Of a stretch of DNA of 64,000 nt, positions 23,288-42,249 are shown one piece after another. Position numbers and translations under genes: made by a program. The notes below the pieces were generated by a model. The model was not told where the DNA came from and did no database searches. It saw only the letters and a list, made by a program, of their open reading frames with translations. This DNA is from Candidatus Woesearchaeota archaeon (GTDB lineage Archaea > Nanobdellota > Nanobdellia > SCGC-AAA011-G17 > PNOQ01): positions 36,692-100,691 of the forward strand of contig CAYYFK010000001.1 in assembly GCA_964471565.1 (NCBI GenBank), written 5' to 3'. Every line of letters starts with the position of its first letter. Within the stretch, counting starts at the first letter, position 1.

Positions 23288-23896
23288 ATGAAGATAATTA
23301 TGCAAATATCAAATATAAAAGAGATAGAATACCTAGCAAAAGGAAAAAGAGGCATTATTTACACTGGAATGTTAAATGGAGAGAAAGTTTCGATAAAGAA
23401 AAAACACCCAGACTCCGAAGCAATTGGTAGAATAAAAAACGAAGCAAAGTTCCTCAAAATATTAAATAAATATGATGTAGGTCCAAAATTAGTAAAAACT
23501 GGGAAAGATTTTATAGTTTATATTTATGTAGAAGGAGATTTTCTACCAGAATTTCTTGAAAAAGAAAAAAGCAAAGAGAAAAAGAGAAAAGTTTTAGTTT
23601 CTATTTTAAAAAAAGCGAGAACATTAGATAAATTAAAAATAAATAAATTAGAATTTACACGACCATTAAAACATATTTTAATTAAATATCCTAAAGTTAC
23701 TATTCTAGATTTTGAAAGATGTTATTATACAGAACATCCAAAAAATGTTACCCAATTTTCCCAATACCTAATTAAAAATAATTTAATGGAAAATGACATT
23801 AAAGTTTTTCAAAATTATAAAGAAAATCAAACAGAAAAAAACTTTAAAGAAATTTTAAAATTAATAAAAAAGAAAAAGAAATTAAAGGTAGAATGA
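23288..23896 (+). CDS. Small protein-kinase-fold protein (Bud32/RIO-like, atypical catalytic loop)
   Basis: AKGKRGIIYTG...VSIKKK (Gly loop plus VAIK-like Lys), YIYVEGDFL hinge, ILDFE (DFG-like). No HxD catalytic loop seen. Confidence 0.35.
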   Translation: MKIIMQISNIKEIEYLAKGKRGIIYTGMLNGEKVSIKKKHPDSEAIGRIKNEAKFLKILNKYDVGPKLVKTGKDFIVYIYVEGDFLPEFLEKEKSKEKKRKVLVSILKKARTLDKLKINKLEFTRPLKHILIKYPKVTILDFERCYYTEHPKNVTQFSQYLIKNNLMENDIKVFQNYKENQTEKNFKEILKLIKKKKKLKVE

Positions 23897-24682
23897 AAAA
23901 GCAAACTCCTCATTCTCAAGGTACAAATCTGGTTCATGGATAACCATGTAATTTCCCACTTGGATTTCTTCTTCACATTTCCCATAGTAGCCTCCTTCTC
24001 CGCACTCACCACTTCCTTCTATATTCCAGATGTATAACTCATCAGCCTCGGATGTGTCCGGATGGTATCCAAAGTAGTTAAATGCACTAACATCACATTT
24101 ACCAGTTGACATCCATCTCAAAAGAACCAAATGGTCACCAGTCAAATCTTCTCCACCAATATTAATTTGTCCTTCAAAAGGATTATACCATACCTGAGCC
24201 GATTCTCCATTTCCTGTGGCAGGAATTATTTTGAAATTCATGCCAAAATATTCTTGGAATACTCCATCAGAGTCTTCATAATAGATTGGTCCCCACAGTC
24301 CCCTTACACTAGTTGGAACAACAATAACAACCCTTCCAGTCTCAAAAGATCCAACTTTGAACCCTTTATCCTGACTTTCCCATCCGATTGCAGTAAATTC
24401 TAGAACATCTTTTTCTATACTACTACCACTACCATCATAGATGTCATAATGTTCCTTTATTTCAATACGATAAGGATATTCGGTAACACATGAACCACAA
24501 TCCTCCTCACAAACCTGACAGGTTTCATCAAAATCACAATTACCATCACCACAATAAGGGCCACCGCCTCCGCCGCCTCCGCCGCCCATATACCGAATAT
24601 TACTCTTTTCTGGCAGCTCAGCACAACTAGAAACAAATAAAGCTCCAACTAAAAACAATGCTATAAAAATAAATTTTTTCAT
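23882..24682 (-). CDS. Secreted protein with lipobox-like signal, Gly9 tract and CGDG Cys module
   Basis: LFVSSC lipobox-like. MGGGGGGGGGPYCGDGNCDFDETCQVCEEDCGSC. Confidence 0.5.
   Translation of the reverse strand: MKKFIFIALFLVGALFVSSCAELPEKSNIRYMGGGGGGGGGPYCGDGNCDFDETCQVCEEDCGSCVTEYPYRIEIKEHYDIYDGSGSSIEKDVLEFTAIGWESQDKGFKVGSFETGRVVIVVPTSVRGLWGPIYYEDSDGVFQEYFGMNFKIIPATGNGESAQVWYNPFEGQINIGGEDLTGDHLVLLRWMSTGKCDVSAFNYFGYHPDTSEADELYIWNIEGSGECGEGGYYGKCEEEIQVGNYMVIHEPDLYLENEEFAFSFYL
24558..24588 (-). repeat. GGN-codon simple repeat encoding the Gly9 tract
   Basis: ccaccgcctccgccgcctccgccgcc inside the CDS. GC-rich island in an AT-rich genome. Confidence 0.7.
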
Positions 24683-24736: not shown

Positions 24737-25549
24737 TTACGATTTAAGCTTATAACACTCTTCCTTCATAGTGCACCTTGCACATTTATTTCGATTCTTA
24801 ACAAAGGATGGCAACTTGCCATCTAAACACTTATCTATACTATCCAAAATAGTAGAAACATAATCGCCAATGAATTCATTATTCTGAACCAATCTTCTCT
24901 CTTCAGATTCCAAATAATTAACAAACCCATGTTTTACTTTCTTACCAAAATTTCCTTCCGCAAGAATCATATAGCTCTCAACCTGAAGTCTATCTCCTGG
25001 CCAAACTCCTTCAGTTGGACCCTTACTCGTTTTCAACTCAATTGGAACAATATGTTCTGGATAAATTTCAATTCTATCTACAGTTCCTTTCAACATATTA
25101 TTTTCAAGTCTTACCCAACTAAGATATTTAGGAAATAATTCCTTCCATAGTTCTTCAGAATAAATTTTTCTTCTAATCATAAAATTGAAAATATTATTGG
25201 CTCTAAAATTTACTTCCTTAAGAATAATTGGCCAAACTTCATGAAAAAAATCGGCCACTCCACATCCAATTTTTAACAAGCTTTCTCCTCCCTCTTCGAT
25301 AATTTCGTTAGCAATTTCATAATATTTTCTTCTAAACACCATTTGGATTTCGTCTAATTTTTTAAAACTCTTTATTGATTTAACGATTTCTTCATCAACA
25401 GAATTAATTTTGTCAAATATTCTATATTTCAAATCAGATTTAATTGGCATTTTATCTTCAAAAACACCAATTTTTCTAGTTTGTTCTAAGTAAAGCTTTC
25501 TTTTACAATACAAGTAAGTAGAGATCCAACTAATTGGCATAGGTCTCAT
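24737..25549 (-). CDS. Cas4-like (DUF83/RecB-family) PD-(D/E)xK nuclease, stand-alone
   Basis: N-terminal YLYCKRKLYLEQ (conserved Cys). DRIE...IVPIELKTSK core. C-terminal CARCTMKEEC Cys cluster (4Fe-4S ligands). Confidence 0.6.
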   Translation of the reverse strand: MRPMPISWISTYLYCKRKLYLEQTRKIGVFEDKMPIKSDLKYRIFDKINSVDEEIVKSIKSFKKLDEIQMVFRRKYYEIANEIIEEGGESLLKIGCGVADFFHEVWPIILKEVNFRANNIFNFMIRRKIYSEELWKELFPKYLSWVRLENNMLKGTVDRIEIYPEHIVPIELKTSKGPTEGVWPGDRLQVESYMILAEGNFGKKVKHGFVNYLESEERRLVQNNEFIGDYVSTILDSIDKCLDGKLPSFVKNRNKCARCTMKEECYKLKS

Positions 25550-25580
25550 ATTAATAGGGAAGTTATCAAAAACTTATAAA

Positions 25581-26666
25581 TCATTCCAAAACGTATATTT
25601 CTCTCTCAATAATACTCTTTTTGTCCTTATAGACTATTGGAAATTTAATATCATCTACTCTTGCTATTTTAAATCCAGATTTTTTAAAAAAAGAATTTAT
25701 TTCCAATTTATATTTTTGCCTATTTGAAGCTTTAAAGATTGGCATCACTATAGCCAATTTACCATTTTTCTTTAACATTTTTTTCAGATTAATAAAAAAA
25801 GGTTCATATAACTCATTTAATTCTTTAACAACTTCAACAACTTCCTCTTTCCTTGGATAACTCTTAAAATAAGGTCCCAAATAAGGTTCACTGGCCACAC
25901 AATCAAATGAATTTTCCTTAAAATACTTATCAACTTTTGAAGAATCTCCGAGGACAATATTATAATCTTTCTTAGAAATAGAATTTAGATTTTTCAGCGC
26001 CTTTTTTCTAATCTCCTTATCTATTTCAACTCCGCTACAAGTTATTCCTTGTAAAACACATTCTTCTAACAAAACTCCCATGCCGCAAAAAGGATCTAAC
26101 AGGATCTTTCCTTTCTTCCCCCCAGCAAGATTAATTAAAATTTTAGCCAACCTAATTGACATATTTCTTTTAAAATCATTATATGGCCTTTCGTTATCTC
26201 TTTTTTTATACTCTTTAGGATTAGAAACCTGGAAAGTCCTTCCAACATATTTATCACAAACAACAAACTCTAAAACACCATTCAATTCTCTTGGTGTAAA
26301 GTGGGTTTCTTTGGGTTTTTTTCTTGTTGCTTTTATTTTTTGAAATTTAAACCACTTAGATATATACGCTTCAAACTTTTCAAAAATTTTATCACTTCCA
26401 TACGCACTGATGGCATAATTAAGTTTATTCTTGCTTCCCAAATAAAAATCTATGTCTTTAATTTCGTTCTCAAGTATAACTTCAGCTATCTTAATAGTTC
26501 CTCCAAGTTTAGATATGTCTACATCGAATTTATCAAAAGAAAAAATAGCAATATTTTTCTCATAATATTCTAATTTATATTTCAAATTAAAATTCTTAAA
26601 ATAACTAATTAATTCAGCATAAGATAGTTCCGGATCCCTTCCTAAAACAAAAATATATTTCTTCAT
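25581..26666 (-). CDS. N2-guanine RNA methyltransferase, Trm11/TrmG10-like
   Basis: LDPFCGMGVLLEECVLQG (DPFCG motif I), EPYLGPY (DPPY-like motif IV). N-terminus FVLGRDPELSYAEL resembles the Trm11 N-domain. Confidence 0.5.
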   Translation of the reverse strand: MKKYIFVLGRDPELSYAELISYFKNFNLKYKLEYYEKNIAIFSFDKFDVDISKLGGTIKIAEVILENEIKDIDFYLGSKNKLNYAISAYGSDKIFEKFEAYISKWFKFQKIKATRKKPKETHFTPRELNGVLEFVVCDKYVGRTFQVSNPKEYKKRDNERPYNDFKRNMSIRLAKILINLAGGKKGKILLDPFCGMGVLLEECVLQGITCSGVEIDKEIRKKALKNLNSISKKDYNIVLGDSSKVDKYFKENSFDCVASEPYLGPYFKSYPRKEEVVEVVKELNELYEPFFINLKKMLKKNGKLAIVMPIFKASNRQKYKLEINSFFKKSGFKIARVDDIKFPIVYKDKKSIIEREIYVLE

Positions 26667-28733: not shown

Positions 28734-29933
28734 TTATTTTCTTCTTTTTCTAAAGTAAATAAACCACCCTATATTGATAAGTACCAAAACAACCAAAGCA
28801 ATTACAATCACATTATTCTTATCCATTCCAGGCCCATTGGCTATCACCGCGCCAGTTCCAAAAAAATCAAACTTAATTGAATTTAAACTAATAATTGTTT
28901 TGACATTTTTCTCTATTTTTTCATCATCATAATTTAAAATTATTTTAAAGTTATATTCTCCTTCTTCTACCCCCGCAGAATCCCAGAAAGCGGTTAACTC
29001 CATTTTAGACATTGGAGGAATATCCTCGGAGGCACTCTTGAATCTGCCTATTTCTTCACTTAAATCCATAACAATTAATTCAACAAATGCATCACTTATT
29101 TCTTCAGACCAACGGTTATCAACCAGAATATCAAATCTGGCAATCTCTCCGAGTCTAAAGTTTTTAACGGTTATATCTATAACCTCTACATTCTTTTCTC
29201 CAACATCAAATATCAAATCACCATAACTTACTTCACCATCATAAGTTAATGTAAGCTTAGCATAATATTTCCCTATATTTATTGGGCCATTCCAAGTAGC
29301 CTGAAATTCTTTTCTATTTTGTGCATCTATAGAATCCAGCTTAGTCTCTAATGTAATTATTTTCTCATTAGTCAAACCATATATATCTATTATCCCTTTG
29401 GCATTTACTATTTTTTGATTCCCAAGATTGCTAGCTACAATTCTAAAATCCACTTGATCTATTCTTCCCGTCTCTATTATGTTTAAATCAGAAATAACAT
29501 ATTTCCCAGGATAAGGAACCTTTATTCTTAATTGATGTACAACTGCTACACTTGCCCCCATCATGGTATCCGATGTAGCATAATCTTTTGGAATTTCCCT
29601 TACAACTATTTTGACATCATGGTCTCCAGGGATACCAAATTTATTAGGTAAATTATATGAATATCGAATGGTTTTTGATTCCTCTCCTTCTATAAATTCC
29701 AATTCATAATCTTCAAGTCTCACAACGTTTGCATCATCTCCCTCTAAATAGATAACAACTTTCATTTCTTTATTCTCAGTATTAATTATTTTCAAACTAA
29801 TTTCATCTTCCAACCCTGGTTCAAAATCTACTATCTTCCTTGCTGGAGAAATTCCTAAGGCACTTACTTCATTGATAAAAATAATAAGAACTAAGAAAAA
29901 CATACAAATTCCTATTTTTTTTATTAATTTCAT
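28734..29933 (-). CDS. Surface protein, N-terminal signal and C-terminal TM anchor (paralogue of 38797..39945)
   Basis: Signal ...EVSA|LG. C-terminal VIVIALVVLVLINIGWFIYFRKRRK. Aligns by eye with 38797..39945. Start overlaps giant gene stop by 4 nt. Confidence 0.6.
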   Translation of the reverse strand: MKLIKKIGICMFFLVLIIFINEVSALGISPARKIVDFEPGLEDEISLKIINTENKEMKVVIYLEGDDANVVRLEDYELEFIEGEESKTIRYSYNLPNKFGIPGDHDVKIVVREIPKDYATSDTMMGASVAVVHQLRIKVPYPGKYVISDLNIIETGRIDQVDFRIVASNLGNQKIVNAKGIIDIYGLTNEKIITLETKLDSIDAQNRKEFQATWNGPINIGKYYAKLTLTYDGEVSYGDLIFDVGEKNVEVIDITVKNFRLGEIARFDILVDNRWSEEISDAFVELIVMDLSEEIGRFKSASEDIPPMSKMELTAFWDSAGVEEGEYNFKIILNYDDEKIEKNVKTIISLNSIKFDFFGTGAVIANGPGMDKNNVIVIALVVLVLINIGWFIYFRKRRK

Positions 29934-32900
29934 TCTGTTAAGCTACTCTCAAACAATATATATGAGGTTTTGTTTCCTGCAGGCTCATCTGAAGGAAGTT
30001 CTATTAATATTTCACATTGCGCAGTATCATTAGTATCTTGATATTTCAATGAATCAATAGCAATAACTTGTGCAGTGGCCATGTTTGTCCAAGTAACAAA
30101 AGAGTTCAACCAATCAAATGCTGTTTCTTCACTACTATTATCAATTCTAAACTGGTAGTATGAAGTATCCATTGCAACAGCATCAAATAATGTGGTCGCA
30201 TTAACGCTAATATTAATTAAAGCATTACCATCATTTTTAACTACGATTGGTGTAGGGCTTTCATCAGTGGTATTATCCATATCTCCCGTATATAATCTCC
30301 CAAAATTGGGAGATTCATTAATCAAACTAACCGCCAAGAGAGATTGGACAGTAAAATTATACGGATCACTCCAAACTCCCAAGTCAGAGGAATCATTAGC
30401 CCTAACTCTCCACCAATAACTTAAATCTAAATCTAAATCACTAAGGATAGTATACTCATTAGTCGCAGGAGAAACATTTATTATAATCGGTTCTGAAAAA
30501 GCATCACTATCATCTAACTCCAGCAAGTAGGTTAAACTATCTCCATCAGCATCATTAGGAATACTCCAATTTGATGTCTCAGTCCTATCTACTGTTATGT
30601 TTAAATTTGCCGGGCTATCTAAAACAACTTGATTTGGGGGTTTATTCAAAATAAGTAGGGGATTTGATAAAGTAACCGGACCATCTTCCTCTAGATCATT
30701 TGGAGTTATAGCAACAGACCAATTATGTGTTTTCACTGTACCATTAGATAGAATTCTCATAGGAGAATGATTTGCTAACCCCGCTTGATAATTAGCTAAA
30801 ATTTGTTCACTTGAAAGGGATTCATTATATATTCTTAGTTCATCTACACTTCCATTAAACATTCTACCTGGATAATAGGTATCTCTTCCTACCAGCACAT
30901 CAATACTTGAATCTCTTATATTCCCAGTATATTCTTCGCCCTCTGTCCTTACTCCATCAATATATAAAGAAATATTTTGTCGATCATAAACTCCAACAAC
31001 ATGGTGCCACCCTCCTACAGAAACCCCCCCAGAAGTAGTTGCAGAATAGGCTTGATCGGCAGCTGCAGCGCCCAATATTCTGAATTGTACATCTCCGCTT
31101 GTCCAAGCCCTAAGCAAAAAAGAGTTTCTATGGCCTGCAGTTCCTTCTGCAGCACCAGACCCCTTCATAACAAAAGATTGGTAATCAAGATCTTTAGATT
31201 TATTTACCCATATTTCTACAGTTAGTTCTTTAGTTATATTCAAACTATCGGTGTGACTAAAATTAATATATGGTCTTACACTTTCATTTGGATTAAGAGA
31301 ATACGCTCCCCCCTTTGCTCCACTATTTATCCATACAGGGTAATTTAGTGAAGAGCCACCCTCCCATTGCTGGAGAGTACCATTATTTCCAAAAGTAGAA
31401 TAATCTTTTATTATATTTAAAGCAATAGAAGATTCATTTGAATCAAAAGGAGCATTCAAAACAGCCGAAGAATTTCCATTCAACCTCCAATCTGTTATGT
31501 TATAAATTCCATCTCCATCATTATCTACATAAGTATCAAAATAAACAGTTAAATTTTCATCGGTGTAATTAGTATTGCTATCTGAAGTTGTATTTAATAG
31601 AACATTTGTGTATGCTGATGGAATGGTATTCAAAATAGTTATATTGCTAGAATTCCCCCATCCACCAAAAATAGTGCCATCATGCAATCTTATACTACAA
31701 TTCCATACCTCCCACTTGGTAGTATTTGAACTATTTAGGGTTGCATTAAATAATGTTCCGCTTGCATAAGAATCATTGTAGTCCTGACTCAACCATAGAA
31801 CTGAATTATTATACCACCTTACACTAACATTTAATTTATTAGAATCTGGATCAGTTATTGTAGCTGAACAATTTAAGTTTTGAGTAGTATAATTTGTTGG
31901 CCCGCCTGTAGCATTTAAAAGAGGACTTGGGGTATTGGGAGCAACATTACTAGTCCCTGTAGTAAAATTATAAGTTCCAGTTTCGTTACAATTATTCTCA
32001 TAATCACAAGAGGTTAAATTATAATAATATATTGTACCTTCTGACAACCCAGATAGATTAAAAGAATGGAATAATCCCAAACTTAAGTTTCCATAAGTTG
32101 TTCCTAGGGAAACAGTTCCCCCATAATTAAGGGAGGCATTTGAAGATTCTTGACTAGTCCAATTTATATCTACAGTAGTATAGCCAGTTGTATTAGTTCT
32201 ATTAAGTACCCAAGGAATTTCTTCGGTTGCCGAGAATATTGAATTATAATCTAGGTTATACTTCTTTTGTTGTTCTGTAAAGTTATATCTTATGCCAGTA
32301 TTATTTTCCCAAGATACATTTTGATTGGAGTTATTTAAAATGATTATATTATCGTGGGTTGTAAAATTAGTATTTGAGAAATTTGTTCCATTATCTGAAA
32401 ATCCATAGATATAGCTTTGGTTGTGCACATAAATTCTATTATTATAGACTTGGAGATTAGTTACATTTCTAGGATTTTCATACTTAGCATTCTTTGCTAC
32501 AATGGCCATTGGGCTTTCAGTCCTATTATAATTTGGACAAAAGAAGGTATTATTGTAAATTGTTGTATTGTGTCCTGCCCTTGTTACAAACCCTTCAAAA
32601 TTTGTTTGATTTTCCATAGTATTATTATATGCCCGATATAATGTTTCATGTTTGGATAAAATTCCATATCCCCCCCCTATTACACGATTATATCTTATTG
32701 TAGTATTAAACGTGCTTGCTGTAAATAGTGGGTGTTTACTTGTATGAACCCTTGCCATCCTAATTGTATTATTTTCTATAATTGTATCATTCATATCTCC
32801 TTGAAAATTAGTAACTGTATCTTCCCCAACATAAATTGAATATCCTGCAGGAACAGATATTGCAGAAACATTATGATCTATGGCATTATTCCTTATAGTC

Positions 32901-35900
32901 ATATTTTTGTTTGGTCCGTTGCCTGCTCCTTTTATGTGGATTGGGACCCCATCACTTATGTAAAAAGAGTTATTTTCGAACAAACTATTAGAAACATTAA
33001 TCACCCTAATTGCATATCCATTTGTTGATCCAGTACTCATATTAAGGAATCTTGTATCATTCCCCCATACATTATTTTGTATTTTCAACCCACCATTGTT
33101 ATTTGCAGATGCATGGATTGAAACCCATGCTCCAGAAAAATTTCCATGCCAGAAAGTATTATTTTTTATTAATAGGTTTTGGCTATTATTTATTGTTATT
33201 CCATACCTATTAATATAATCATTTTGATTTCCAAATTGATTATCTTTAATTTGCCAATTAGAACCAATATTATTTACTTCTATACAAGAAGAGCTAGAAT
33301 TTTCAAAATAATTTCCTTGAATAATTGTATTATTTGGAGAAGGTCCATAATATTTTATATGTGTACTAGTTAATTTATATGTAAAATTATTATTCTTTAT
33401 TGTTACATTTGAAGAATCATAACCAGATATTCCAGTCCCGGTATTATTGAAAACATTATCTTCAATGTGCCAATTATGTCTTGGACCGGGGGAGCCGCCA
33501 TAATCATACATTGCTATTCCATAACTTGTTGTATTCACAAAGGTATTATTATAAAGATTTATCACTCCAGTTCCCTGGTCTGCCCAAATTCCATCCTCTG
33601 TATTATTCCCATCTATGACAAAACCCTTAAACGTAACATTATTTGCTCCTGTAATAAATCTTATAACAATAGAAGAAGCACTAGTATTTGCTTGTATTAC
33701 TGCTTGTGATTTATTATAAGAAATAAAAGTTCTATTCTGTACATTCTTATCCATAATTAATAAGTAGTTTGATGCATAAGATTGTTCCCTGTATAATCCA
33801 TCTCCAACATAAATAATCGCATTTGCTCCCGCTGTATTTTCTGCATAATTTATAGTCTTCCATGCATCTTTCCAAGAAGTTCCAGCATTAGTATCGTCCC
33901 CATTCTTAGAAACATAATAAGTATTATTAAATTCTTTAAGAGTAAACTCACTTGAATTACCCCACTCACTTCCAGCAAGGCTATCATTTAATCTCATAGC
34001 ACAATGCCAGCTATCTCCTTCGGCCGTATTTCCAGAATCCAAAGATCTATTGAACAAAGTTCCACTAATATAACTATTAGTAGAATTAGTAAAATTTCCT
34101 TCGACTATGTAATCATTACTTCTATACCACCTTACTGTAACATTCATTTTATCAGAATCTGGATCAGTTATTGTAGCAGAACAGTTTAAATCGACAATGG
34201 GAGAATTAGATCCGTCTGTGGTATTTAGAATTGGGCTTGGGTTATTTGGAGCACTATTAGCAGTTCCAAACTCAAAGAAAATAGATTTATCACTTGTTAA
34301 ATTAACCTCCTTAAATTGTCCATCATAACTAGAATGATTAACTACAATAGTGTAATTGGTTTTATATCCATAATTTCCATGGGTCCTATTAATCAAACGT
34401 TCAGTTAGGTTTTGTCTAACTATATTACCATTAATATCTGTTGTAAGATTAAAAACAAGATTATTGGATTTAAATTTAGGCTTGCTCCCACCAGTATTAT
34501 TATATCCCTGAACAACAGAATCCGAAAGATTGCTATTATCAGTAGATAAATTGGTTTTAACATCCAAAAACCATTTAACCTCAAAAGAGTTCCACCCCCT
34601 ATCCCACTGAATATTTCCTGAAGAAGTATTTAATAACGTGTTATTTTCATCTCGTTCTCCGTTCGCCATTCGAAAATTAAGAGAGGATCCAGACACAATA
34701 GAATTAATAAAAGTATTATAAGTTAAATTGGACATATAAAGTGCAGTAGCAGCAGTAATACTAACATTATTGAAAGTATTGCTCTCAGAATGGTAAGTAA
34801 GCCCCCCATATGTGCCTGCAGCATTACAGCTTGAATTTACTATGTGCCCATAAAGGCTTCTACTCATATACATACAATTTGAGTTAGAATCAAAATTAGC
34901 AGAAGTAAGATTAAAATTATCTGTCTCGTGAACATATAAGGCATAGGAGGAAGAGCCCGCCCCAGTAAAATTATTTACAATTAACCCATCGATAGTATGA
35001 GCATATAAACAATAAGTTCCACAAGAACCAACAGAGTTATTTATTAAAGAAATGTCATTAAGACTTCGAGCATAAACTCCCGTAGTAGTAGAAGAAATGA
35101 TATTATTATTAGTAATATTATTAAAAGGACCGTTTGGATAAAGATAAAAACCATATTTATTCCCCTTAAGAGTATTATTATCAAATATATTATTCCTAGA
35201 AGTACTTTGAACAGAGTAGAATGCTGCTGAAGCAGTTTGGGAAGTATGGTTTTCAATTCTATTATCAACCATAGTGCTATTTTGAAAGTTTAACCCAAAA
35301 TCAATTCCATAGTCTTGTGAAGAATCTGTAGTATATATCGTATTATTAGTTATAGTCCAGTTTCCACCATAGCTTAAAAGCATTCCATGATCTGTATTAT
35401 CATAAATTATATTATTTTTTACAATAATATCATATAAATAGGTAACATATATTCCCCATCTATTACTACTAATATTATTGTTACTAAAATTTAACCCATA
35501 AGATCTAGTTGATGAAGAGGCCCTAATGCCTGCCCCACCAGTAATGTTATAAAAAGTATTGCCATCTACTAACCCCCCATTTGTATTTTTAAAATCGATT
35601 CCTAATAATGAACCAGAACCCTGGTAATTCTTAAAAGTATTATTTACAAAAGAAACATTGCTACTAGTCTGAGATTTAATTCCATAATCATACAACTCAG
35701 TAAAAGTATTATTCAGCCAAAGGTTATTATTTCCCCAATTAAATCCGCCCATAGCAAATTGTTTAATATGACAATTTTTTACTGTTATTCCATGTTTATT
35801 ATAAGCTATCCATATTCCCCAATTAGAATCATCCACATTATCTCCATCTATTATATGTCCATCACAATCCAAAACAGTATTGGTAGCAAGAGATAATCCA

Positions 35901-37474
35901 TTTGCAGCACAGTTAGTTATATCATTCTCCATAATCACAGTACCAGAAATTGCTTGTCCACAACTCAAAACATCATTATAAGCATAGGCAATCTGATTTC
36001 CAAATTCAAATTTTAAATAATGCTTAGCATCAGTCAAAACTTTACTAATTTCAATTCCAGTTTCTAAACAAGAGTAATTTTCAACAAAAACAGAGCCATT
36101 CTCCCATAAATATCCAACGCTCTCATTTCCGCATTTCAAATCTAAAAACTGTAAATCTAAATCATTCTTTTCTTTTATGTCCCAAGTTGTTCCATTAAAT
36201 GGTTTTATACTTAAATTGGCAGTTCCTGTTGTATTAAATCTTACAGTCCAATTTCCGCCCACATATGGATAACTTTGAACATTTAAAATTATAATCTCAA
36301 TTTCAAATTCTTTTTGTTTATCTAAAACTGGAATAATCCATTCAATATAATCAATCAAACCATCCTCATCTAAATCTTTAGTTTCAAATTCTCTCTCTAA
36401 CCGTCCTTCCTTTTCTAAAATATACAAATCAATACTTTCCTTAGGAACATTATCTAAATAAGTGTAGACTAAAACATTTTCAAACTCTTTTCCGCTTACA
36501 AAAACCTTCTTTCTCTCATTTCCAAGTTCAACTTCTTTAGATTCAGGACCAGGAGTAGAATATTTTATCAAAAACTCTTTAGAAGGATTCTTTATAGAAA
36601 GTTTATTTTCATCTAACTCATAAACTACTTCTCCAGTAGTTCTAAAAACATCCTTGAAAAAATTAAAAACAACATTGCCTGTAATCAAATTTTCGGATTC
36701 CTTTTCTTTACCCTTCTCAACAAAATCTTCATCATAGCCTATTTCATAATATTCTATATCAAAAACATCCTCAGGCAATTCAACATCATACAAATCTATT
36801 CTATTTTTTAACTTAACCTTCTTTTCCCAAACAACAGGTTGGTTAATTACAACCCCCAAATTCTTCAATGAAACCTCCTCAATCAAAGTTTCATTTACAA
36901 TTTCTACTACTTCATCCAAACTTAAATTTAACACACTATCATTTTTCACATGACTAGAAATATTTTCATCAAAGGTAGATTCATTATCCTCGGGGGTTGT
37001 TTCATTTAAATCAGTAGATTCATTATGTTCAAAAGTAGAATCATTTATTTCTGTAGAAATATTTTGTTTAACTCCCCCTATACCTTCATCCTCCAAACTA
37101 TTTTCAAAAGAGGGTTCTTCTTCAAAAATCTCTTCCTCAGAATCATCTTCTGGAAGTTTTTCTTCTTTCAATTCTTCTTGTGCAGGTTCCTCTAACTGTC
37201 CCTCCCCAGAAAGGCCAGCCACACCTTCTGAACCACTTTCAATATCAGATATTTCAACAACATCAAATCCTTGATAAGCAAACATTCCTAAAAAACCAAA
37301 TAAAAAAAGTAGTGCAACTAAAAAAAATAAAGTAAAAAAAGAAGTATTTCTCTTGGTAGGATCACTAGTTCCTAAATAAACACTTTTTACTTTGCCATCT
37401 TTTGTTCTAACACTTTTAAAATAGTAAGGACCAAATTTCTTTCCAGCTCTAGATATATACTTCTTATAAACCAA
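29930..37474 (-). CDS. Giant (2514 aa) membrane-anchored surface glycoprotein/adhesin with beta-helix repeats, Ig/FN3-like internal repeats and a LamG-like domain
   Basis: TTG start with GAGGGG RBS. N-terminal basic region plus TM. Hundreds of N-x-S/T sequons. PbH1-like repeats (NNIIYDNTDHG...ITNNTIY). LamG signature DELRIYNESLSSEQILANY. Two ~105-aa repeats. Confidence 0.8.
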   Translation of the reverse strand: MVYKKYISRAGKKFGPYYFKSVRTKDGKVKSVYLGTSDPTKRNTSFFTLFFLVALLFLFGFLGMFAYQGFDVVEISDIESGSEGVAGLSGEGQLEEPAQEELKEEKLPEDDSEEEIFEEEPSFENSLEDEGIGGVKQNISTEINDSTFEHNESTDLNETTPEDNESTFDENISSHVKNDSVLNLSLDEVVEIVNETLIEEVSLKNLGVVINQPVVWEKKVKLKNRIDLYDVELPEDVFDIEYYEIGYDEDFVEKGKEKESENLITGNVVFNFFKDVFRTTGEVVYELDENKLSIKNPSKEFLIKYSTPGPESKEVELGNERKKVFVSGKEFENVLVYTYLDNVPKESIDLYILEKEGRLEREFETKDLDEDGLIDYIEWIIPVLDKQKEFEIEIIILNVQSYPYVGGNWTVRFNTTGTANLSIKPFNGTTWDIKEKNDLDLQFLDLKCGNESVGYLWENGSVFVENYSCLETGIEISKVLTDAKHYLKFEFGNQIAYAYNDVLSCGQAISGTVIMENDITNCAANGLSLATNTVLDCDGHIIDGDNVDDSNWGIWIAYNKHGITVKNCHIKQFAMGGFNWGNNNLWLNNTFTELYDYGIKSQTSSNVSFVNNTFKNYQGSGSLLGIDFKNTNGGLVDGNTFYNITGGAGIRASSSTRSYGLNFSNNNISSNRWGIYVTYLYDIIVKNNIIYDNTDHGMLLSYGGNWTITNNTIYTTDSSQDYGIDFGLNFQNSTMVDNRIENHTSQTASAAFYSVQSTSRNNIFDNNTLKGNKYGFYLYPNGPFNNITNNNIISSTTTGVYARSLNDISLINNSVGSCGTYCLYAHTIDGLIVNNFTGAGSSSYALYVHETDNFNLTSANFDSNSNCMYMSRSLYGHIVNSSCNAAGTYGGLTYHSESNTFNNVSITAATALYMSNLTYNTFINSIVSGSSLNFRMANGERDENNTLLNTSSGNIQWDRGWNSFEVKWFLDVKTNLSTDNSNLSDSVVQGYNNTGGSKPKFKSNNLVFNLTTDINGNIVRQNLTERLINRTHGNYGYKTNYTIVVNHSSYDGQFKEVNLTSDKSIFFEFGTANSAPNNPSPILNTTDGSNSPIVDLNCSATITDPDSDKMNVTVRWYRSNDYIVEGNFTNSTNSYISGTLFNRSLDSGNTAEGDSWHCAMRLNDSLAGSEWGNSSEFTLKEFNNTYYVSKNGDDTNAGTSWKDAWKTINYAENTAGANAIIYVGDGLYREQSYASNYLLIMDKNVQNRTFISYNKSQAVIQANTSASSIVIRFITGANNVTFKGFVIDGNNTEDGIWADQGTGVINLYNNTFVNTTSYGIAMYDYGGSPGPRHNWHIEDNVFNNTGTGISGYDSSNVTIKNNNFTYKLTSTHIKYYGPSPNNTIIQGNYFENSSSSCIEVNNIGSNWQIKDNQFGNQNDYINRYGITINNSQNLLIKNNTFWHGNFSGAWVSIHASANNNGGLKIQNNVWGNDTRFLNMSTGSTNGYAIRVINVSNSLFENNSFYISDGVPIHIKGAGNGPNKNMTIRNNAIDHNVSAISVPAGYSIYVGEDTVTNFQGDMNDTIIENNTIRMARVHTSKHPLFTASTFNTTIRYNRVIGGGYGILSKHETLYRAYNNTMENQTNFEGFVTRAGHNTTIYNNTFFCPNYNRTESPMAIVAKNAKYENPRNVTNLQVYNNRIYVHNQSYIYGFSDNGTNFSNTNFTTHDNIIILNNSNQNVSWENNTGIRYNFTEQQKKYNLDYNSIFSATEEIPWVLNRTNTTGYTTVDINWTSQESSNASLNYGGTVSLGTTYGNLSLGLFHSFNLSGLSEGTIYYYNLTSCDYENNCNETGTYNFTTGTSNVAPNTPSPLLNATGGPTNYTTQNLNCSATITDPDSNKLNVSVRWYNNSVLWLSQDYNDSYASGTLFNATLNSSNTTKWEVWNCSIRLHDGTIFGGWGNSSNITILNTIPSAYTNVLLNTTSDSNTNYTDENLTVYFDTYVDNDGDGIYNITDWRLNGNSSAVLNAPFDSNESSIALNIIKDYSTFGNNGTLQQWEGGSSLNYPVWINSGAKGGAYSLNPNESVRPYINFSHTDSLNITKELTVEIWVNKSKDLDYQSFVMKGSGAAEGTAGHRNSFLLRAWTSGDVQFRILGAAAADQAYSATTSGGVSVGGWHHVVGVYDRQNISLYIDGVRTEGEEYTGNIRDSSIDVLVGRDTYYPGRMFNGSVDELRIYNESLSSEQILANYQAGLANHSPMRILSNGTVKTHNWSVAITPNDLEEDGPVTLSNPLLILNKPPNQVVLDSPANLNITVDRTETSNWSIPNDADGDSLTYLLELDDSDAFSEPIIINVSPATNEYTILSDLDLDLSYWWRVRANDSSDLGVWSDPYNFTVQSLLAVSLINESPNFGRLYTGDMDNTTDESPTPIVVKNDGNALINISVNATTLFDAVAMDTSYYQFRIDNSSEETAFDWLNSFVTWTNMATAQVIAIDSLKYQDTNDTAQCEILIELPSDEPAGNKTSYILFESSLTE
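31631..31948 (-). repeat. Internal domain repeat copy 2 in giant gene (NVAPNTPSPLLN...CSATITDPDSNKLNVSVRWY...)
   Basis: See copy 1. The copies are about 2.3 kb apart within the same ORF. Confidence 0.7.
33944..34258 (-). repeat. Internal domain repeat copy 1 in giant gene (NSAPNNPSPILN...CSATITDPDSDKMNVTVRWY...)
   Basis: About 30-nt near-identical DNA core (agaatctggatcagttattgtagcagaaca) shared with copy 2. Protein copies about 50% identical. Confidence 0.7.
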
Positions 37475-37566: not shown

Positions 37567-37884
37567 TTAAATGTCTCTAAGTTCTTCTTGTATTTTTCTA
37601 ATTTTTGCTAATTTTTGTTTTATCTCTAGCACTTTAGCCTGTGCTTTAGATTTATCTTTATTATAACTGCCCTCTTTCTCCACCAGCTTAGAAATCTGAT
37701 CTCTTAATTCCATCTCCTTAGACTGAGCATTCACCATTTTACTATTCAAAGAACCCACCCTTTTAGATACCTTATCTCTTTCGGCCTTCAGCTTCAGCAA
37801 CTCTTTTGATATATCTCCCAAAGCCTCAACAAGGGAACCTCTCTTCATGGGTGTTTTAAGAACCTTCTTTTTTTTAGTAACCAC
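37567..37884 (-). CDS. Small coiled-coil protein
   Basis: 105 aa. Heptad-like K/E-rich sequence (LKLKAERDKVSKRVGSLNSKMVNAQSKEMELRDQISKL). Confidence 0.45.
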   Translation of the reverse strand: MVTKKKKVLKTPMKRGSLVEALGDISKELLKLKAERDKVSKRVGSLNSKMVNAQSKEMELRDQISKLVEKEGSYNKDKSKAQAKVLEIKQKLAKIRKIQEELRDI

Positions 37885-37924: not shown

Positions 37925-38800
37925 TTATATTTTTTTCACCATATTATTTATTCTCTTTAGTCCTTTTCTATACGCATCCTGCCCTATATATTTAGAATCG
38001 TATGCTTTTTTTAACAATCTTTTTTGCCTACTTAACTTATTTGCCATAGCAGTCTTTGCTTCTCGTGTTTTTTTGTTTTTTCTGTATGTTCCATACATTC
38101 TCTTTAATCTCTTAGATTGCGTTTTTTCTATTCTTCTTAATTTTGTTTGGTGGAATATAAAAACAAGCAATATAGCAATTCCCAACAAAACTAAAACAAA
38201 CCAGAATCCTACTTCCCATCCGGATGGAAAGAAAATCATTGGTTGTTTAATCTTTTCAGTTCTAGTTCTAGGAACACTCTTATCTCCAATAAGAGTCAAA
38301 TCGAGTGCTTTAAATTTTATTCCAACCCCATTAAAACTTGCCACTAAATCATCAGAACCATCCTCATCCAAATCAAAGAACAATAGTTCATCTGGAAGAA
38401 GACCAAACTTCTGACCAGAAATTTCTAAAATAAGTTTTTCATTGGCCCTATAGAAATAAACACTAAACTCAAACTCAGTTCCTAACTCAAAAATAGTAAG
38501 TACTTTATCCCCCGCTGATAAACCCTCTATCAAATATTCTTCATTTTCTGTAAAATCTAGAGTATGTGTTACAGGAGCAGCTCCACCTCCGGCTCCGCCA
38601 CTTCCCCCTCCAGATCCACCATCATCTCCAGGAGGATCAGAAGGTACAATTACATTCAAACCAACAGTGGCAGTAGCATAAGAATCTTCAGGAGCCACAG
38701 AAGAAGAATACTTAAAATACAATACACTTGGCATAACTATAGAAATAATTATTAATGCGAAAGCTAAAGAGGCAATTACTTCTCTTTTATACACTTTCAT
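37925..38800 (-). CDS. Bitopic membrane protein with Gly-rich linker and basic C-terminal tail
   Basis: N-terminal TM. DDGGSGGGSGGAGGGAAP. Second TM VGFWFVLVLLGIAILLVFIF, then a K/R-rich coiled tail. Confidence 0.5.
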   Translation of the reverse strand: MKVYKREVIASLAFALIIISIVMPSVLYFKYSSSVAPEDSYATATVGLNVIVPSDPPGDDGGSGGGSGGAGGGAAPVTHTLDFTENEEYLIEGLSAGDKVLTIFELGTEFEFSVYFYRANEKLILEISGQKFGLLPDELLFFDLDEDGSDDLVASFNGVGIKFKALDLTLIGDKSVPRTRTEKIKQPMIFFPSGWEVGFWFVLVLLGIAILLVFIFHQTKLRRIEKTQSKRLKRMYGTYRKNKKTREAKTAMANKLSRQKRLLKKAYDSKYIGQDAYRKGLKRINNMVKKI

Positions 38801-39945
38801 CTTTTACCATCTCTTTTTTTCTTTATTCTTATCAAAATAAAATACCCAATTCCAAATACAATAATAAAAATACCTGCCCCTACCCAAAGAATGGAATAAT
38901 CAAATGATTTAACTTCAATATCAAATTCTTCTTCAGTGTGTATATCATCATAAATAAGGCTCAATCTAGCAGGATATTTTCCAGAACTCATTCCTTCAGC
39001 ATCCACATATATTAAAACATCTCTTTCCTCCCAAGAATTTAATCTAAATGTCTCACTTTTGAAAGACTTAAATGGATTATGATATATTTCTAAAAAAGCA
39101 ACTACATTATCTATTTCATTACCCCAATCACTTTTCACTCTCAAATAATATCGGTTTATTGTACCAACCTCTACATCATTATCATAATCTAAAATAGAAA
39201 CATGTACATCTCCCAACTTAAAATTTGCCATAGATTCAGAAGTTTTACCTTGAAAGTTTAAAGTTGACATGCCCCAATAGTCTCCAAATGTATTATCTTC
39301 AGGATTCCATTTCATTTGTATCTCTTTTATTTCTCCCAATTCTAATTGATCATTAAAAGAAAGTTGACCAACACTCTCGTTATAAACATTAAAAATATCT
39401 ATAACTCCTTCAATATTACTAAGAGCGACACTACCTGTATTTTCCATTTTTAAATAAAAAGGAACTAGCTCTCCAACCGAAACACTAGTAGCTTTCAATC
39501 TTGAGCTCAAGTATGGCCCTTCAAAAGGCACTCTAACAATAAAAATACTCGCAGAAGCAGTTAAAACACTAATAAAATCGGTTGATTCTTCAATAGCGAT
39601 TTCACTAGCAACAAAATCAAAACGATAATCTCCAGGTTTTTCAAATTTTTCTGGCATGAGAATATTAAATCTAAAAGCTTTAGTTTCCCCAGGTTGGAAT
39701 AAATACTCCTGAGTTACAAAGTCTGTATAGTTTTCCATTTCACCATAAACAAACATCTTTCCAAGAACTTGCTCTTCATTAGAATTTCTAACATGAACAC
39801 TAACTCCTTTTGCCATTCCAGATTCAAATGTAACTACATCCTTACTTGGAGTTACCTCCAAAGCATACGCACTAGAAAACATACACAACAAAACCAAGAA
39901 AATAATTATTCCCCTCTTTACCATGTTTAAAGAAAAAGAAAGCAA
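38797..39945 (-). CDS. Surface protein, N-terminal signal and C-terminal TM anchor (paralogue of 28734..29933)
   Basis: Signal ...SSAYA|LE. C-terminal ILWVGAGIFIIVFGIGYFILIRIKKKRDGKR. Shared blocks with 28734..29933 (PGDYRFDFVASEI vs PGDHDVKIVVREI; GVIDIFNVYNE vs GIIDIYGLTNE). Confidence 0.6.
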   Translation of the reverse strand: MLSFSLNMVKRGIIIFLVLLCMFSSAYALEVTPSKDVVTFESGMAKGVSVHVRNSNEEQVLGKMFVYGEMENYTDFVTQEYLFQPGETKAFRFNILMPEKFEKPGDYRFDFVASEIAIEESTDFISVLTASASIFIVRVPFEGPYLSSRLKATSVSVGELVPFYLKMENTGSVALSNIEGVIDIFNVYNESVGQLSFNDQLELGEIKEIQMKWNPEDNTFGDYWGMSTLNFQGKTSESMANFKLGDVHVSILDYDNDVEVGTINRYYLRVKSDWGNEIDNVVAFLEIYHNPFKSFKSETFRLNSWEERDVLIYVDAEGMSSGKYPARLSLIYDDIHTEEEFDIEVKSFDYSILWVGAGIFIIVFGIGYFILIRIKKKRDGKR

Positions 39946-39963: not shown

Positions 39964-40530
39964 TTATCCTGTAAAGGTGCAAATAAAAGTTATAGTTCCA
40001 CTTTTCATTCCTGATCCCTCTCCGATTGGAACAGTAGCATTTACACTAACATTCATCTCATCAGTAGCAGCCGCAAAAGCTAGATCAGAAACCAAAATTT
40101 CGGCCGCACCAACAGAATTATTAATAATTTTAAAGCCAGTTACGCAAGTTCCACTTTCAGTTTCATTACATTGCATTGTCCAATTTTGAGTTGGTGCTGT
40201 CTCTGTTATAAATAAATCATCCGTAGAATAACCAGTTATGTTCTGCCCCACATTTCCTGTATTCTCCAAAACTATAAAATCTGGAACCGTAATCTCTTCG
40301 CTCCTATTATAATTTCCCCTAGTTATATTTCCTAAATTAATTGTACTATCTATAGCACTACAGGCAGTAGTGGTATTGACCTCCAATTTAACAGTTCCAG
40401 TAGTAGTAGCAGCTCCAGTTATAGTGTCCATAAAAGAAACACTAAGCCAAGTTCCAGAAACAGAAGCGATAATCGCCATAGCCAATAAAATAGCTAAACT
40501 ATTATTCGATGCCTTCATTTCCCTCAACAC
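39964..40530 (-). CDS. Secreted N-glycosylation-rich small surface protein, tandem paralogue 1
   Basis: Signal MKASNNSLAILLAMAIIASVSG. About 10 N-x-S/T sequons in 188 aa. About 75% aa identity to 40779..41321. Confidence 0.6.
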   Translation of the reverse strand: MLREMKASNNSLAILLAMAIIASVSGTWLSVSFMDTITGAATTTGTVKLEVNTTTACSAIDSTINLGNITRGNYNRSEEITVPDFIVLENTGNVGQNITGYSTDDLFITETAPTQNWTMQCNETESGTCVTGFKIINNSVGAAEILVSDLAFAAATDEMNVSVNATVPIGEGSGMKSGTITFICTFTG

Positions 40531-40801
40531 CCTCTTCTTTTATTTCATCAGCCACGACATTCAAACCTACAAATCCAGTAGCACTAGACTCCAAAACTAT
40601 ATTATTAGTGACTGGCCCACCATAAGAATGAGAATAGTCATAAACTGCATATGCCCCAAAGATGGAAACAATAACTGCCACAACCAACAAAGCAATAATG
40701 ACCTTGTCAGAGACCTCTCTCTTATCACCTTTTTTCATATAAAGAATATGAGAAGTAAAAATATATAAATCTTTTCCTTTAACCAGAGTATGTACAAACA
40801 A
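40502..40801 (-). CDS. Small membrane protein (likely starts at internal MKKGDKRE...)
   Basis: MKKGDKREVSDKVIIALLVVAVIVSIFGAYAV: one TM helix, acidic C-terminus. Lies between the tandem paralogues. Confidence 0.35.
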   Translation of the reverse strand: MFVHTLVKGKDLYIFTSHILYMKKGDKREVSDKVIIALLVVAVIVSIFGAYAVYDYSHSYGGPVTNNIVLESSATGFVGLNVVADEIKEEGVEGNEGIE

Positions 40802-41321
40802 AAGTTATAGTCCCAGTTTTCATTCCAGAGGACTCTCCGATAGGTACAGTAGCATTCACACTAACATTCATCTCATCAGTAGCAGCTATAGTAACCAAAT
40901 CATTAACTAATGTTTCCGCAGTTCCTACAGACGAATTTATTATTTTAAACCCATTCACACAGGTTCCACTCTGGCTTACATTGCACTGCATTGTCCAATT
41001 TTGAGTAGGGGCAGCTGAAGAATCAAACAAATCCGAAGTAGAATAACCAGTTATATTAAGTAAAACATTTCCGTTATTCTCAATAACAACAAAATCAGTA
41101 TCAGGAGTGCCATCAATCTCTTCACTCCTATTATAATTTCCCCTAGTTATATTTCCCAAATTAATTGTACTATCTGTAGCAGTACAAGAAGTAGAAGCAT
41201 TAACTTCCAATTTTATAGTCCCAGTTGTAACTGCTGCCCCTGTTATAGTATCCATAAAAGAAATTGCTACCCACGTGCCAGTTATAGTAGACACAACTGA
41301 AATTACCAACAAAATCACCAA
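40779..41321 (-). CDS. Secreted N-glycosylation-rich small surface protein, tandem paralogue 2 (non-ATG start)
   Basis: Long DNA stretches identical to paralogue 1 (e.g. ctcctattataatttcccctagttatatttcc). No in-frame ATG; upstream in-frame codons still encode ...SNNFLVILL matching the paralogue-1 signal. Confidence 0.55.
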   Translation of the reverse strand: MVILLVISVVSTITGTWVAISFMDTITGAAVTTGTIKLEVNASTSCTATDSTINLGNITRGNYNRSEEIDGTPDTDFVVIENNGNVLLNITGYSTSDLFDSSAAPTQNWTMQCNVSQSGTCVNGFKIINSSVGTAETLVNDLVTIAATDEMNVSVNATVPIGESSGMKTGTITFVCTYSG

Positions 41322-41379
41322 AAAATTATTCGAAAGTCTAATTTATTCTCCTCTTTTTACTGAATATAAAATATTTATG

Positions 41380-42249
41380 TTAGTATTTAAACTTTTTGAA
41401 AACAAACTGCCCAGACACATTGTCATTTAATAGTTTCTCAGCTTTTTTTGTTAAATTTCCATTTGTAAAAAATAAAACGGGTAATTTGTTATTATTTCCT
41501 TCTTCCCAAGCAAGTTGTATGTCTTTATCATTAATCACTTTTTTTGTTTTTGCTTTGACAAAATATCTCAATTTCCCCAAGGTGGTAGGAATATCTACTA
41601 CAAAATTAAACTCTTTATTTTTTCTAACTACATCTTGAGAGATAACATAAATTTCCTTCTCATTGAAATATTTATTTAATTCTTCAAATATTTCTCCTTC
41701 ACTAGATTGTGTTTTTTCTTCTTTCTTCAAAGGTTTCTTCTCAGCCCTTTCTGGTTCTTTTTTAGGAACCTCTTTTTCTTCGGTTTCTTTTTTCTTTTCA
41801 GAAACACCGAGCTCATTTTTTATCAATTCCTTTGTCTTTTCATTATCTTCCAAATAATATTTCCAAAAGATTTCATACTCTCCAGAGATCCCAACATTTA
41901 ATGGAACTGCAAAATCTTTCAAGGCCCTCAAAGCAACTCTCTGCCATGGTTCAGCAGTCTTATCTCGAATAACTCCTTTTTCTTTTAATAGTTGAAATGC
42001 CTCCTTTTCTTTTCCAGACAAATATTCAGAAAGATTCTCTAATTTATTTTCTTGACCTTTTAAATAGTAAAATGGACTGCCTCCTTTCTTCAAACTACTA
42101 ATTTGAACTTCCTTCTTATCTACTAGATTAGATAAAATAGCACTAGCAAATAAAATATTAGTATTAATAACTTTGGCAAGTTGAGCCGGAATAAGAGGCC
42201 CCTCTCTTTTTATAATATCTAGAATTTCTGCTTTATTATCTTTAACCAT
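41380..42249 (-). CDS. Winged-helix DNA-binding protein (TFE/TFIIE-alpha-like N-terminal wH) with K/E-rich linker and C-terminal domain
   Basis: ILDIIKREGPLIPAQLAKVINTNILFASAILSNLVDKKEVQ...GGSPFYYL resembles the TFE wH (GWYYYYW). Rest unassigned. Confidence 0.3.
   Translation of the reverse strand: MVKDNKAEILDIIKREGPLIPAQLAKVINTNILFASAILSNLVDKKEVQISSLKKGGSPFYYLKGQENKLENLSEYLSGKEKEAFQLLKEKGVIRDKTAEPWQRVALRALKDFAVPLNVGISGEYEIFWKYYLEDNEKTKELIKNELGVSEKKKETEEKEVPKKEPERAEKKPLKKEEKTQSSEGEIFEELNKYFNEKEIYVISQDVVRKNKEFNFVVDIPTTLGKLRYFVKAKTKKVINDKDIQLAWEEGNNNKLPVLFFTNGNLTKKAEKLLNDNVSGQFVFKKFKY

Follow-up and report, generated by a model that had tools for sequence, protein, structure and literature searches.

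TasA and the archaeal members of its superfamily (AbpA/AbpX, CanX, Saci_0406) are Sec-exported subunits with an immunoglobulin (Ig)-like or jelly-roll fold that form fibers without a chaperone, the N-terminal strand of each subunit completing the fold of its neighbor (PMC9674648, PMC9245690, PMC9715654, 10.1101/2024.12.30.630787); TapA supplies the first donor strand to the TasA fiber (PMC10151520). The tafi of haloarchaea (TafA/TafC/TafE/TafF) and their Sec-dependent DUF1102 analogues combine major and minor Ig-like subunits with a laminin-G tip or initiator and a membrane-anchored terminator, and donor-strand linkage has been proposed for them (PMC11821415, PMC12337348). In the TLP-1a/b fibrils (CryoSeek, PDB 9ikk), which come from an uncultured source, an N-terminal strand that AlphaFold2 (AF2) predicts as disordered and an Ig-like head are joined by donor-strand exchange (PMC11494351). 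Here we describe two paralogous genes, P1 and P2, in a 64,000-nucleotide stretch of a Candidatus Woesearchaeota archaeon genome (GCA_964471565.1, contig CAYYFK010000001.1, positions 36,692-100,691 of the forward strand; hereafter the window). We propose, with a probability of roughly 55% and on computational evidence, that they encode cell-surface fiber subunits of a marine Woesearchaeota (DPANN) archaeon that would likewise be assembled by donor-strand complementation. The functionally closest systems, by analogy, would be the chaperone-free donor-strand fibers of monoderm prokaryotes (TasA, archaeal bundling pili, threads, cannulae and tafi), among which the locus is best read as a previously undescribed system.

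The P1 precursor begins with an MKxSNNS motif and a membrane helix, followed by a conserved strand, AATTTGTVKLEVN, and an Ig-like domain with four invariant cysteines. An AF2 model of the P1 monomer built with 33 sequences (predicted local distance difference test score, pLDDT, of 82.5) places a helix at residues 5-27, a low-confidence coil at residues 28-52 and an Ig-like sandwich at residues 53-184, the latter with pLDDT above 90. In a donor-strand chimera, P1(28-184)+P1(28-52), modeled from the window sequence with an alignment of exact homologues and without a scrambled control, the appended AATTTGTVKLEVN formed a 13-residue strand (E166-178, pLDDT 73-86) that completes a PapD-like/ASH Ig fold. 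The identical native copy at the N-terminus remained coil (pLDDT 42-56), and confidence climbed to a pLDDT of 95-97 for the domain and to a predicted template modeling score of 0.79. The strand is unpaired in cis in two independent models and pairs just when it is placed after the C-terminus; in these models, this is the behavior expected of a donor-strand subunit. An initial annotation of the two genes had suggested a filament subunit pair and had held that a globular enzyme fold would speak against it. The predicted fold is an Ig-like sandwich, with no enzyme fold, and the filament reading gains computational support from a conserved strand that is modeled as unpaired in the monomer and paired in the complemented design. 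Many of the top-ranked Foldseek matches to the uncomplemented model are FimA, FimI, FimG, PapA and CsuA pilins (E 0.01-0.1, none significant).

Conservation across a large family points to the same region of the protein. A word-indexed search returned 11 and then 35 relatives, and an exhaustive search with a profile hidden Markov model returned 3071 clusters (50% identity) at E<=0.001 and 2143 at E<=1e-10. The three family members that carry an organism name are assigned to Candidatus Woesearchaeota or Nanoarchaeota, and the five genome hits obtained with a narrower alignment are all Woesearchaeota metagenome-assembled genomes (MAGs). No Pfam or NCBIfam entry matched P1, P2 or any of 124 diverse family members, and a sequence search of the PDB found no related solved structure. 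Family-wide, an N-terminal [DE]-[VI]-S-N-[KN]-[ST] motif is followed by a hydrophobic segment, G-T, a spacer, [IL]-T-G-[AF]-A-T..G and an amphipathic x-Phi-x-Phi strand. Few positions anywhere in the family are as conserved as some in the strand region (G35 in 121 of 123 members, G41 in 115 of 123), and positions 45 and 47 of its alternating hydrophobic pattern are hydrophobic in 94-95% of members. In the member P0028, an ordinary short Sec signal ends right before the ATTT... strand, an arrangement in which the mature protein would presumably start with the strand.

The label of glycoprotein given in the initial annotation is lent support by the sequons. Mature P1 carries nine N-x-S/T sequons where its composition predicts 3.3 +/- 1.5 (p about 0.0004), a three-fold enrichment, and N71, N118 and N160 are kept in 25-30 of the 33 homologues. 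Such an excess and conservation in the exported part are as expected of an N-glycosylated archaeal surface protein, and P1 is accordingly predicted to be one. The N-terminal SNNS or SNKT (P1 residues 4-7) is itself an N-x-S/T sequon in 26 of the 33 members, though this end should face the cytoplasm.

The N-terminal module of the subunits is common to three protein families of the cluster. A conserved gene between P1 and P2, which overlaps the start of P1 and which the initial annotation had passed over, encodes a 78-residue protein (MKKGDKREVSDKVIIALL...ATGFVGLNVVADE...NEGIE) with the subunits' N-terminal membrane module, a strand-like motif ([ST]-T-G-x-V-x-L-x-V-V) and an acidic tail; it has no Ig domain. 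This protein, for which the word-indexed search returned two relatives, matches the subunit family with an hhalign E-value of 5.5e-10 over the N-terminal 33 columns. The 3' end of its gene overlaps the P1 ATG by 17 nucleotides (nt), and a TATA-like TTTATATA lies ~25-32 nt upstream of its own ATG. The 291-residue protein encoded further downstream begins with a membrane segment and a strand-like SYATATVGLNVIV; a Gly-rich linker then leads to a small domain, and a second membrane segment with a basic cytoplasmic tail forms the C-terminus. Its N-terminal module includes ATATVGLNVV. It aligns with the 78-residue protein over 53 columns that include the strand (hhalign E=1.6e-4, probability 50%) and with the subunits at E=1e-3 (probability 22%).

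In the assembly that we propose, the precursor would comprise a conserved N-terminal export/membrane segment, the amphipathic strand and an N-glycosylated Ig-like sandwich, probably with two disulfides. Unable to complete its own domain, the strand would insert beside the C-terminal strand of a neighboring subunit, giving head-to-tail linkage. The 78-residue protein, probably translationally coupled to P1, and the 291-residue protein may donate strands as initiator, cap or anchor, in analogy to TapA for TasA and to TafC/TafF. Polymerization, these accessory roles and any translation of P2 are what we infer from features that can be read directly, namely the sequences, their conservation, the synteny and the fold prediction.

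A number of observations weigh against this proposal. Fiber, transcript and protein are all predicted, and the evidence is entirely computational. The chimera lacks a negative control, and AlphaFold2 may be inclined to pair whatever beta-prone tail it is given with the last strand as a hairpin; the acceptor groove, moreover, is putative, the model having been read through its confidence scores and strand assignment. The likeness of the strands in the 78- and 291-residue proteins consists of short motifs, and the hhalign probabilities given above are modest. In comparisons with PF12389 and TasA, the family shows no significant sequence link to the TasA superfamily, the cluster is without a signal peptidase gene, unlike the tasA and taf operons, and the long N-terminal region, if uncleaved, would keep each subunit tethered to the membrane.

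Comparison with TasA and TapA reveals likenesses in organization and differences in detail. An accessory strand donor, as proposed here for the 78- and 291-residue proteins, would correspond to TapA, and paralogous subunit genes are frequently adjacent in the TasA superfamily as well. The subunit family aligns collinearly with TasA over GTW..F.D, A.xxxGT..L, NL.N and DF...EN.G, at an hhalign probability of 1% and E=0.052 for the family profile against a TasA sequence. PF12389 (Peptidase_M73) had no match in P1 or P2 (hmmscan E<=1) or in 124 family members (E<=0.01), and structural scores against solved TasA-type fiber subunits are modest. The window cluster differs in having no adjoining signal peptidase (SipW/TafD-like enzymes are frequent in the superfamily, not universal), in the much longer N-terminal region of its subunits, which has its own conserved motif, and in an accessory protein of 78 residues without a folded domain.

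The likeness to tafi lies in the combination of subunits, membrane-anchored Ig-like proteins and a neighboring giant protein with laminin-G domains. The signal in this system is of Sec type and not Tat, no TafD-like peptidase is encoded in the window, and a strand-bearing protein without an Ig domain has not been described for tafi; the sole hint from sequence is an insignificant match of the 291-residue protein to TafF (E=0.23). With the chaperone-usher pilins (FimA, PapA, CsuA/B, EcpD) the subunits would share an Ig-like fold that misses its last strand and is completed by the N-terminal extension of a neighbor. Archaea, however, have no periplasmic chaperone, usher or outer membrane, and there is no sequence similarity (PapE, E=0.14, not significant). 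No usher or chaperone Pfam family was found in the cluster proteins, in the genes of related loci, or among the 25 of 73 families listed in a whole-window Pfam scan. The P1 model resembles TLP-1a/b in its strand predicted as disordered and its Ig-like head; in TLP-1a/b the strand comes from protomer n+4 of a tubule, and an 'F. bacterium' protein is the nearest predicted structure given in that study (PMC11494351). TLP-1a/b was not among the top 60 structure matches of the complemented P1 model.

Two other readings of the proteins have to be weighed against the fiber. P1 and P2 might be monomeric surface glycoproteins that do not polymerize, whether as part of an envelope- or S-layer-associated coat or as adhesins, held by an uncleaved N-terminal signal-anchor; the TGAATTTG... 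segment would then serve as a glycosylated stalk, unless it is simply a first strand like any other that AlphaFold2 leaves unplaced. The N-terminal helix is indeed predicted as a single membrane-length helix whose cleavage is hypothetical, the PapD-like/ASH Ig fold is generic and common in surface proteins, the neighborhood encodes many other large secreted proteins, and the window holds no dedicated peptidase or assembly gene. A monomer is, however, difficult to reconcile with a highly conserved strand that stays unpaired in cis in both models, or with the position of the Sec signal in P0028, and it leaves unexplained why the module is retained in an operon protein that is devoid of an Ig domain. 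We consider this reading unlikely, if by no means negligible.

Far less probable, in our view, are type IV pilin-like proteins with a class III signal peptide, a hydrophobic helix and a beta-sandwich head, served by machinery encoded elsewhere in the genome. The archaeal class III signal is cleaved at [KR][GA], immediately ahead of its hydrophobic part. The predicted hydrophobic helix and Ig-like head are superficially like those of archaeal pilins and archaellins, and P1 reads M-K-A before S, which puts K at -2 and A at -1. Across the family, however, this signal is not the rule: a FlaFind-like class III motif occurs in 9 of 175 full-length N-termini, in apparent chance placements, and 134 of the 175 have S-[ND]-x ahead of the hydrophobic segment, position -1 being taken by V, I, F or Y. 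A conserved, non-helical linker of 25 residues separates helix from head, and the 64-kb window holds no motif of an A24 peptidase or of a PilB/PilC-type ATPase. Motifs of S26 peptidases (regular expression over six frames), of secretion ATPases and of STT3 were also absent from the window, and the gene calls of related loci included no peptidase Pfam domain.

How DPANN archaea attach themselves to the cells on which they live is, to our knowledge, largely unknown. If the donor-strand fiber is real, a conserved operon whose subunit family exceeds 3000 unannotated clusters would be a testable candidate for a DPANN attachment or matrix apparatus, donor-strand assembly would extend to another archaeal lineage, and the 78-residue protein, with its strand-like motif and no Ig domain, would be an unusual control element. 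The unannotated surface system appears widespread among DPANN archaea. A bolder and more doubtful extension is that it constitutes a new DPANN-wide class of chaperone-free donor-strand fibers with no detectable sequence relation to TasA, Taf or chaperone-usher pilins, in which strand donors control assembly and AUU or AUA starts tune the secondary copies. The 78-residue protein would then be a secreted or tethered plug or initiator and the protein with two membrane segments an anchor, and the fiber might present the giant beta-helix/laminin-G adhesin to host cells.

The start of P2 sets it apart from P1. In frame, P2 reads TAA-ATT-AGA-CTT-TCG-AAT-AAT-TTT-TTG (stop-I-R-L-S-N-N-F-L), where P1 reads ATG AAG GCA TCG AAT AAT AGT TTA (M-K-A-S-N-N-S-L). 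This codon alignment matches the P1 start directly, and the P2 ATT is therefore the homologue of an ancestral ATG. Every full-length homologue begins M-[KR]-x-S-N-N; at the homologous position, P2 has ATT (41340-41342) in place of the canonical ATG, GTG or TTG. The initial annotation had noticed the lack of an in-frame ATG, which is borne out up to Met-30 (MDTIT...), as well as the homology of the upstream P2 codons to the P1 N-terminus, of which S-N-N is kept ahead of the TTG. Its alternatives of ATT/TTG initiation or recent decay are the right ones, with ATT at the homologous start. A Shine-Dalgarno-like GAGGAG (plus-strand 41348-41353) stands 5 nt ahead of the ATT, an in-frame TAA immediately precedes it, and a TATA-like TTTAAATA (plus-strand 41384-41391), conserved in the orthologue of a related locus (L012), lies 41 nt upstream. 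The other possible starts of P2 are TTG at 41321 (180 residues), GTG at 41318 and ATG at 41255 (158 residues). The gene caller of the Joint Genome Institute (JGI) begins P2 at the internal Met-30 and yields a 158-residue product that has lost the export signal, which illustrates the truncation of such genes by standard gene callers. ATG starts predominate in the window, TTG also occurs (as in a giant protein of 2514 residues), and a Shine-Dalgarno-like motif precedes ~30% of the genes.

The P2 ATT is the same in eight independent JGI assemblies of different samples, whose identity to the window is 100% over stretches of up to 4.8 kb. An assembly error, which the initial annotation had named as a possible refutation, is thus ruled out; the eight assemblies represent one clone, and are therefore uninformative on selection though they exclude an artefact. 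In L012 (Woesearchaeota MAG GCA_018657985.1) the order of subunit, small gene and subunit is that of the window, as it is in L015, and the upstream copy of both, the positional orthologue of P2, begins with ATG, its promoter and Shine-Dalgarno-like surroundings being the same. In the MAG L016, the first tandem copy starts with ATG and the second with ATA, in an otherwise identical context, AAG AGG TTG ATA ATA AT[G/A] AAG. Judged by these sequences, the ATG-to-ATA change in L016 is independent of the P2 ATT, and the replacement of AUG by AUH starts is recurrent. Such changes to AUU and AUA in secondary copies provide a natural test of near-cognate initiation in archaea.

The coding sequence of P2 looks like that of an intact gene. 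It has 187 open codons, a dN/dS of 0.18-0.23, and each of the 43 residues that do not vary across the 11 closest homologues, the four cysteines included; P2 is also no further than P1 from a single-copy outgroup. P1 has a small partner gene and P2 is without one. With ATT in place of ATG and no partner gene, P2 is therefore either a minor variant subunit made at a low level or a copy silenced very recently. In the former case, its own promoter-like element and Shine-Dalgarno-like motif would drive weak translation, which we infer to begin at AUU with a likelihood slightly short of even, and with a distinctly smaller one at the UUG or GUG 7-8 codons downstream. The nearest parallel is a bacterial one, the AUU start codon of Escherichia coli infC, which gives low expression. 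Like infC, P2 would have a near-cognate AUU that follows a Shine-Dalgarno motif and stands where the start is conserved, with low expression expected; it differs from infC in showing no evident autoregulatory logic and in its archaeal machinery (aIF1/aIF2), and its use of AUU is putative.

That P2 is not translated at all is improbable but deserves consideration, and the same holds for its being a recently inactivated pseudogene, a redundant duplicate silenced by loss of the ATG and a missing partner gene, with a frame intact merely from recency. This would fit a start position with no ATG, GTG or TTG where the orthologue has ATG, the additional changes at codons 2 and 3 (AAA ATA to AGA CTT), and the truncated product that is all that gene callers rescue; the clonal assemblies give no information on selection that might contradict it. 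Archaeal aIF1, moreover, destabilizes and discriminates against non-AUG initiation complexes (PMC6237735), so that an AUU start would be weak at best, which also counts against the role that we propose for P2. The pseudogene reading does not readily explain, however, 187 codons kept open in a genome of 31% GC with every invariant residue retained, dN/dS and outgroup distance that match those of P1, a promoter-like element and Shine-Dalgarno-like motif held at ideal spacing to the ATT, or the S-N-N retained ahead of any alternative start. The independent change to ATA in L016 suggests, in addition, that AUH starts are tolerated in secondary copies.

The two open reading frames had been correctly located as paralogues in the initial annotation, which overlooked that both lie on the minus strand and described them as near-identical, with about 75% amino acid identity. 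We measured 71% amino acid identity with one 3-residue indel (BLASTP) and 74% nucleotide identity (codon alignment). With dS ~1.0, dN 0.19 and the low dN/dS given above (Nei-Gojobori), the copies are therefore old and both under purifying selection. The duplication, real but old, was also picked up by a direct-repeat finder, with a spacing of 815-824 nt between copies that are 75-78% identical. The long identical DNA runs that had been pointed out do exist (32, 29, 20, 18 and 17 nt being the longest), but conserved residues and AT-biased codon use suffice to explain them. When codon-identity (synonymous-site) states were shuffled among residues conserved between P1 and P2, neither the longest run (p=0.50) nor the best 20-codon window (p=0.056) was significant. 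This gene-conversion check, which the initial annotation had called for, thus leaves conversion or concerted evolution without significant support as the origin of these runs. Paralogues inside one genome are more alike than paralogues across genomes, which may reflect conversion at an earlier time or duplication that occurred more than once.

The end motifs given as conserved in the initial annotation are found in the proteins. The variable central patch is real insofar as a 3-codon indel with flanking substitutions, the sole indel of the pair, lies at ITVPDF / IDGTPDTDF; differences also fall on 13 of the 27 residues of the signal/membrane segment and in about five patches, mostly between predicted strands. 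No convincing inverted repeats were found in the search, and none flank the P2 promoter, which speaks against an invertible or phase-variable element. With no significant conversion tracts and no such repeats, the suggestion of a variable surface antigen finds no support.

The genes of the cluster are listed in Table 1. The window is AT-rich (31% GC), and the genes for PCNA, RadA, aIF2-alpha, Hjc and a tRNA intron endonuclease that it encodes identify the host as an archaeon.

Table 1. Genes and regulatory region of the putative fiber cluster; positions are those of the window.
Feature	Position	Strand	Description
P1	39964..40518	-	Subunit gene of 184 residues, ATG start; JGI calls an identical 184-residue product
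78-aa partner gene	40502..40738	-	Lies between P1 and P2
P2	40779..41342	-	Paralogue of P1 with 187 codons, read from ATT 41340-41342
P2 upstream region	41343..41391	-	Shine-Dalgarno-like GAGGAG, in-frame TAA, TATA-like TTTAAATA
375-aa Ig-repeat membrane protein	38797..39924	-	Sec-type signal, Ig-like repeats, C-terminal membrane anchor
291-aa protein	37925..38800	-	N-terminal membrane module and a second, C-terminal membrane segment
105-aa coiled-coil protein	37567..37884	-	Conserved in the cluster
2514-aa surface protein	29930..37474	-	Beta-helix (NosD) and laminin-G domains, N-terminal membrane segment

Ten related loci with DNA and two JGI contigs without it share one neighborhood, and the partner genes were gathered from them by hand. 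All contain the tRNA endonuclease, a cytoplasmic protein of ~290 residues and one or two subunit genes. Most subunit genes are preceded by a gene of ~73 codons that overlaps their start, and the repeat unit is therefore 'small gene + subunit'. A single unit is present in L009, L014, L020 and L021; the order is small-subunit-small-subunit in L011, L016 and two JGI contigs, small-subunit-subunit in L013 and L017, and subunit-small-subunit in the window, L012 and L015. Downstream, as far as the length of the locus permits, follow the Ig-repeat membrane protein (~380 residues), the ~290-residue protein, the coiled-coil protein of ~105 residues and usually the giant beta-helix/laminin-G protein, an order seen in L009/L010, L012, L013, L020 and L021 as well as in L001-L005, assemblies of the same clone as the window. 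The exceptions are L014 and one JGI contig (3300072015), which have a protein of ~490 residues instead of the downstream ~290-residue, ~105-residue and giant set; in these two (L014:9283-12197), genes for a MoxR-type AAA ATPase, DUF58 and VWA proteins replace the giant protein. In L016 (2700-3000), the first small-partner gene is frameshifted right after MSKQKKEVS and the second copy is intact, through either assembly error or decay of the unit.

Pfam, NCBIfam and PDB sequence searches of the neighboring genes gave nothing significant, and the roles suggested for their products follow from position and layout. The 375-residue protein, whose gene immediately follows the subunit genes in every related locus, is a candidate acceptor or anchor; its hhalign match to the subunit family is limited to the ENxG motif and is not significant. 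The 291-residue protein is a candidate strand-donating membrane anchor, and the 2514-residue protein, which follows the cluster in most related loci, a candidate adhesin. No ATG precedes the N-terminal membrane segment of the latter, for which JGI calls a TTG start; after this segment it carries QGFDVVEISDIE and an acidic stretch, loosely like the strand and acidic tail of the 78-residue protein. Just downstream of the giant gene, and overlapping its 3' end by 4 nt, lies a 399-residue paralogue of the 375/382-residue Ig-repeat protein (28734-29933, minus strand), whose N-terminus has the same form, AL[GE][IV][ST]P....

Further features of the neighborhood were noted. Immediately ahead of the subunit genes, in the window and in every related locus, lies the gene for the ~290-residue cytoplasmic protein (41380-42249, minus strand). 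Its product combines a weak winged-helix (MarR-like) N-terminus with a middle part rich in Lys and Glu, and may regulate the cluster. A Cys-rich module, CGD..C......C..C..DCG.C, in a secreted protein of 266 residues (23882-24682, minus strand) is also inserted after the strand motif in members of the 291-residue family (L014:7725-9212, L021:4750-5691). At 24737-26666 on the minus strand, a Cas4/PD-(D/E)XK nuclease gene adjoins a DNA-methyltransferase-like gene, and the two may form a small defense or restriction module.

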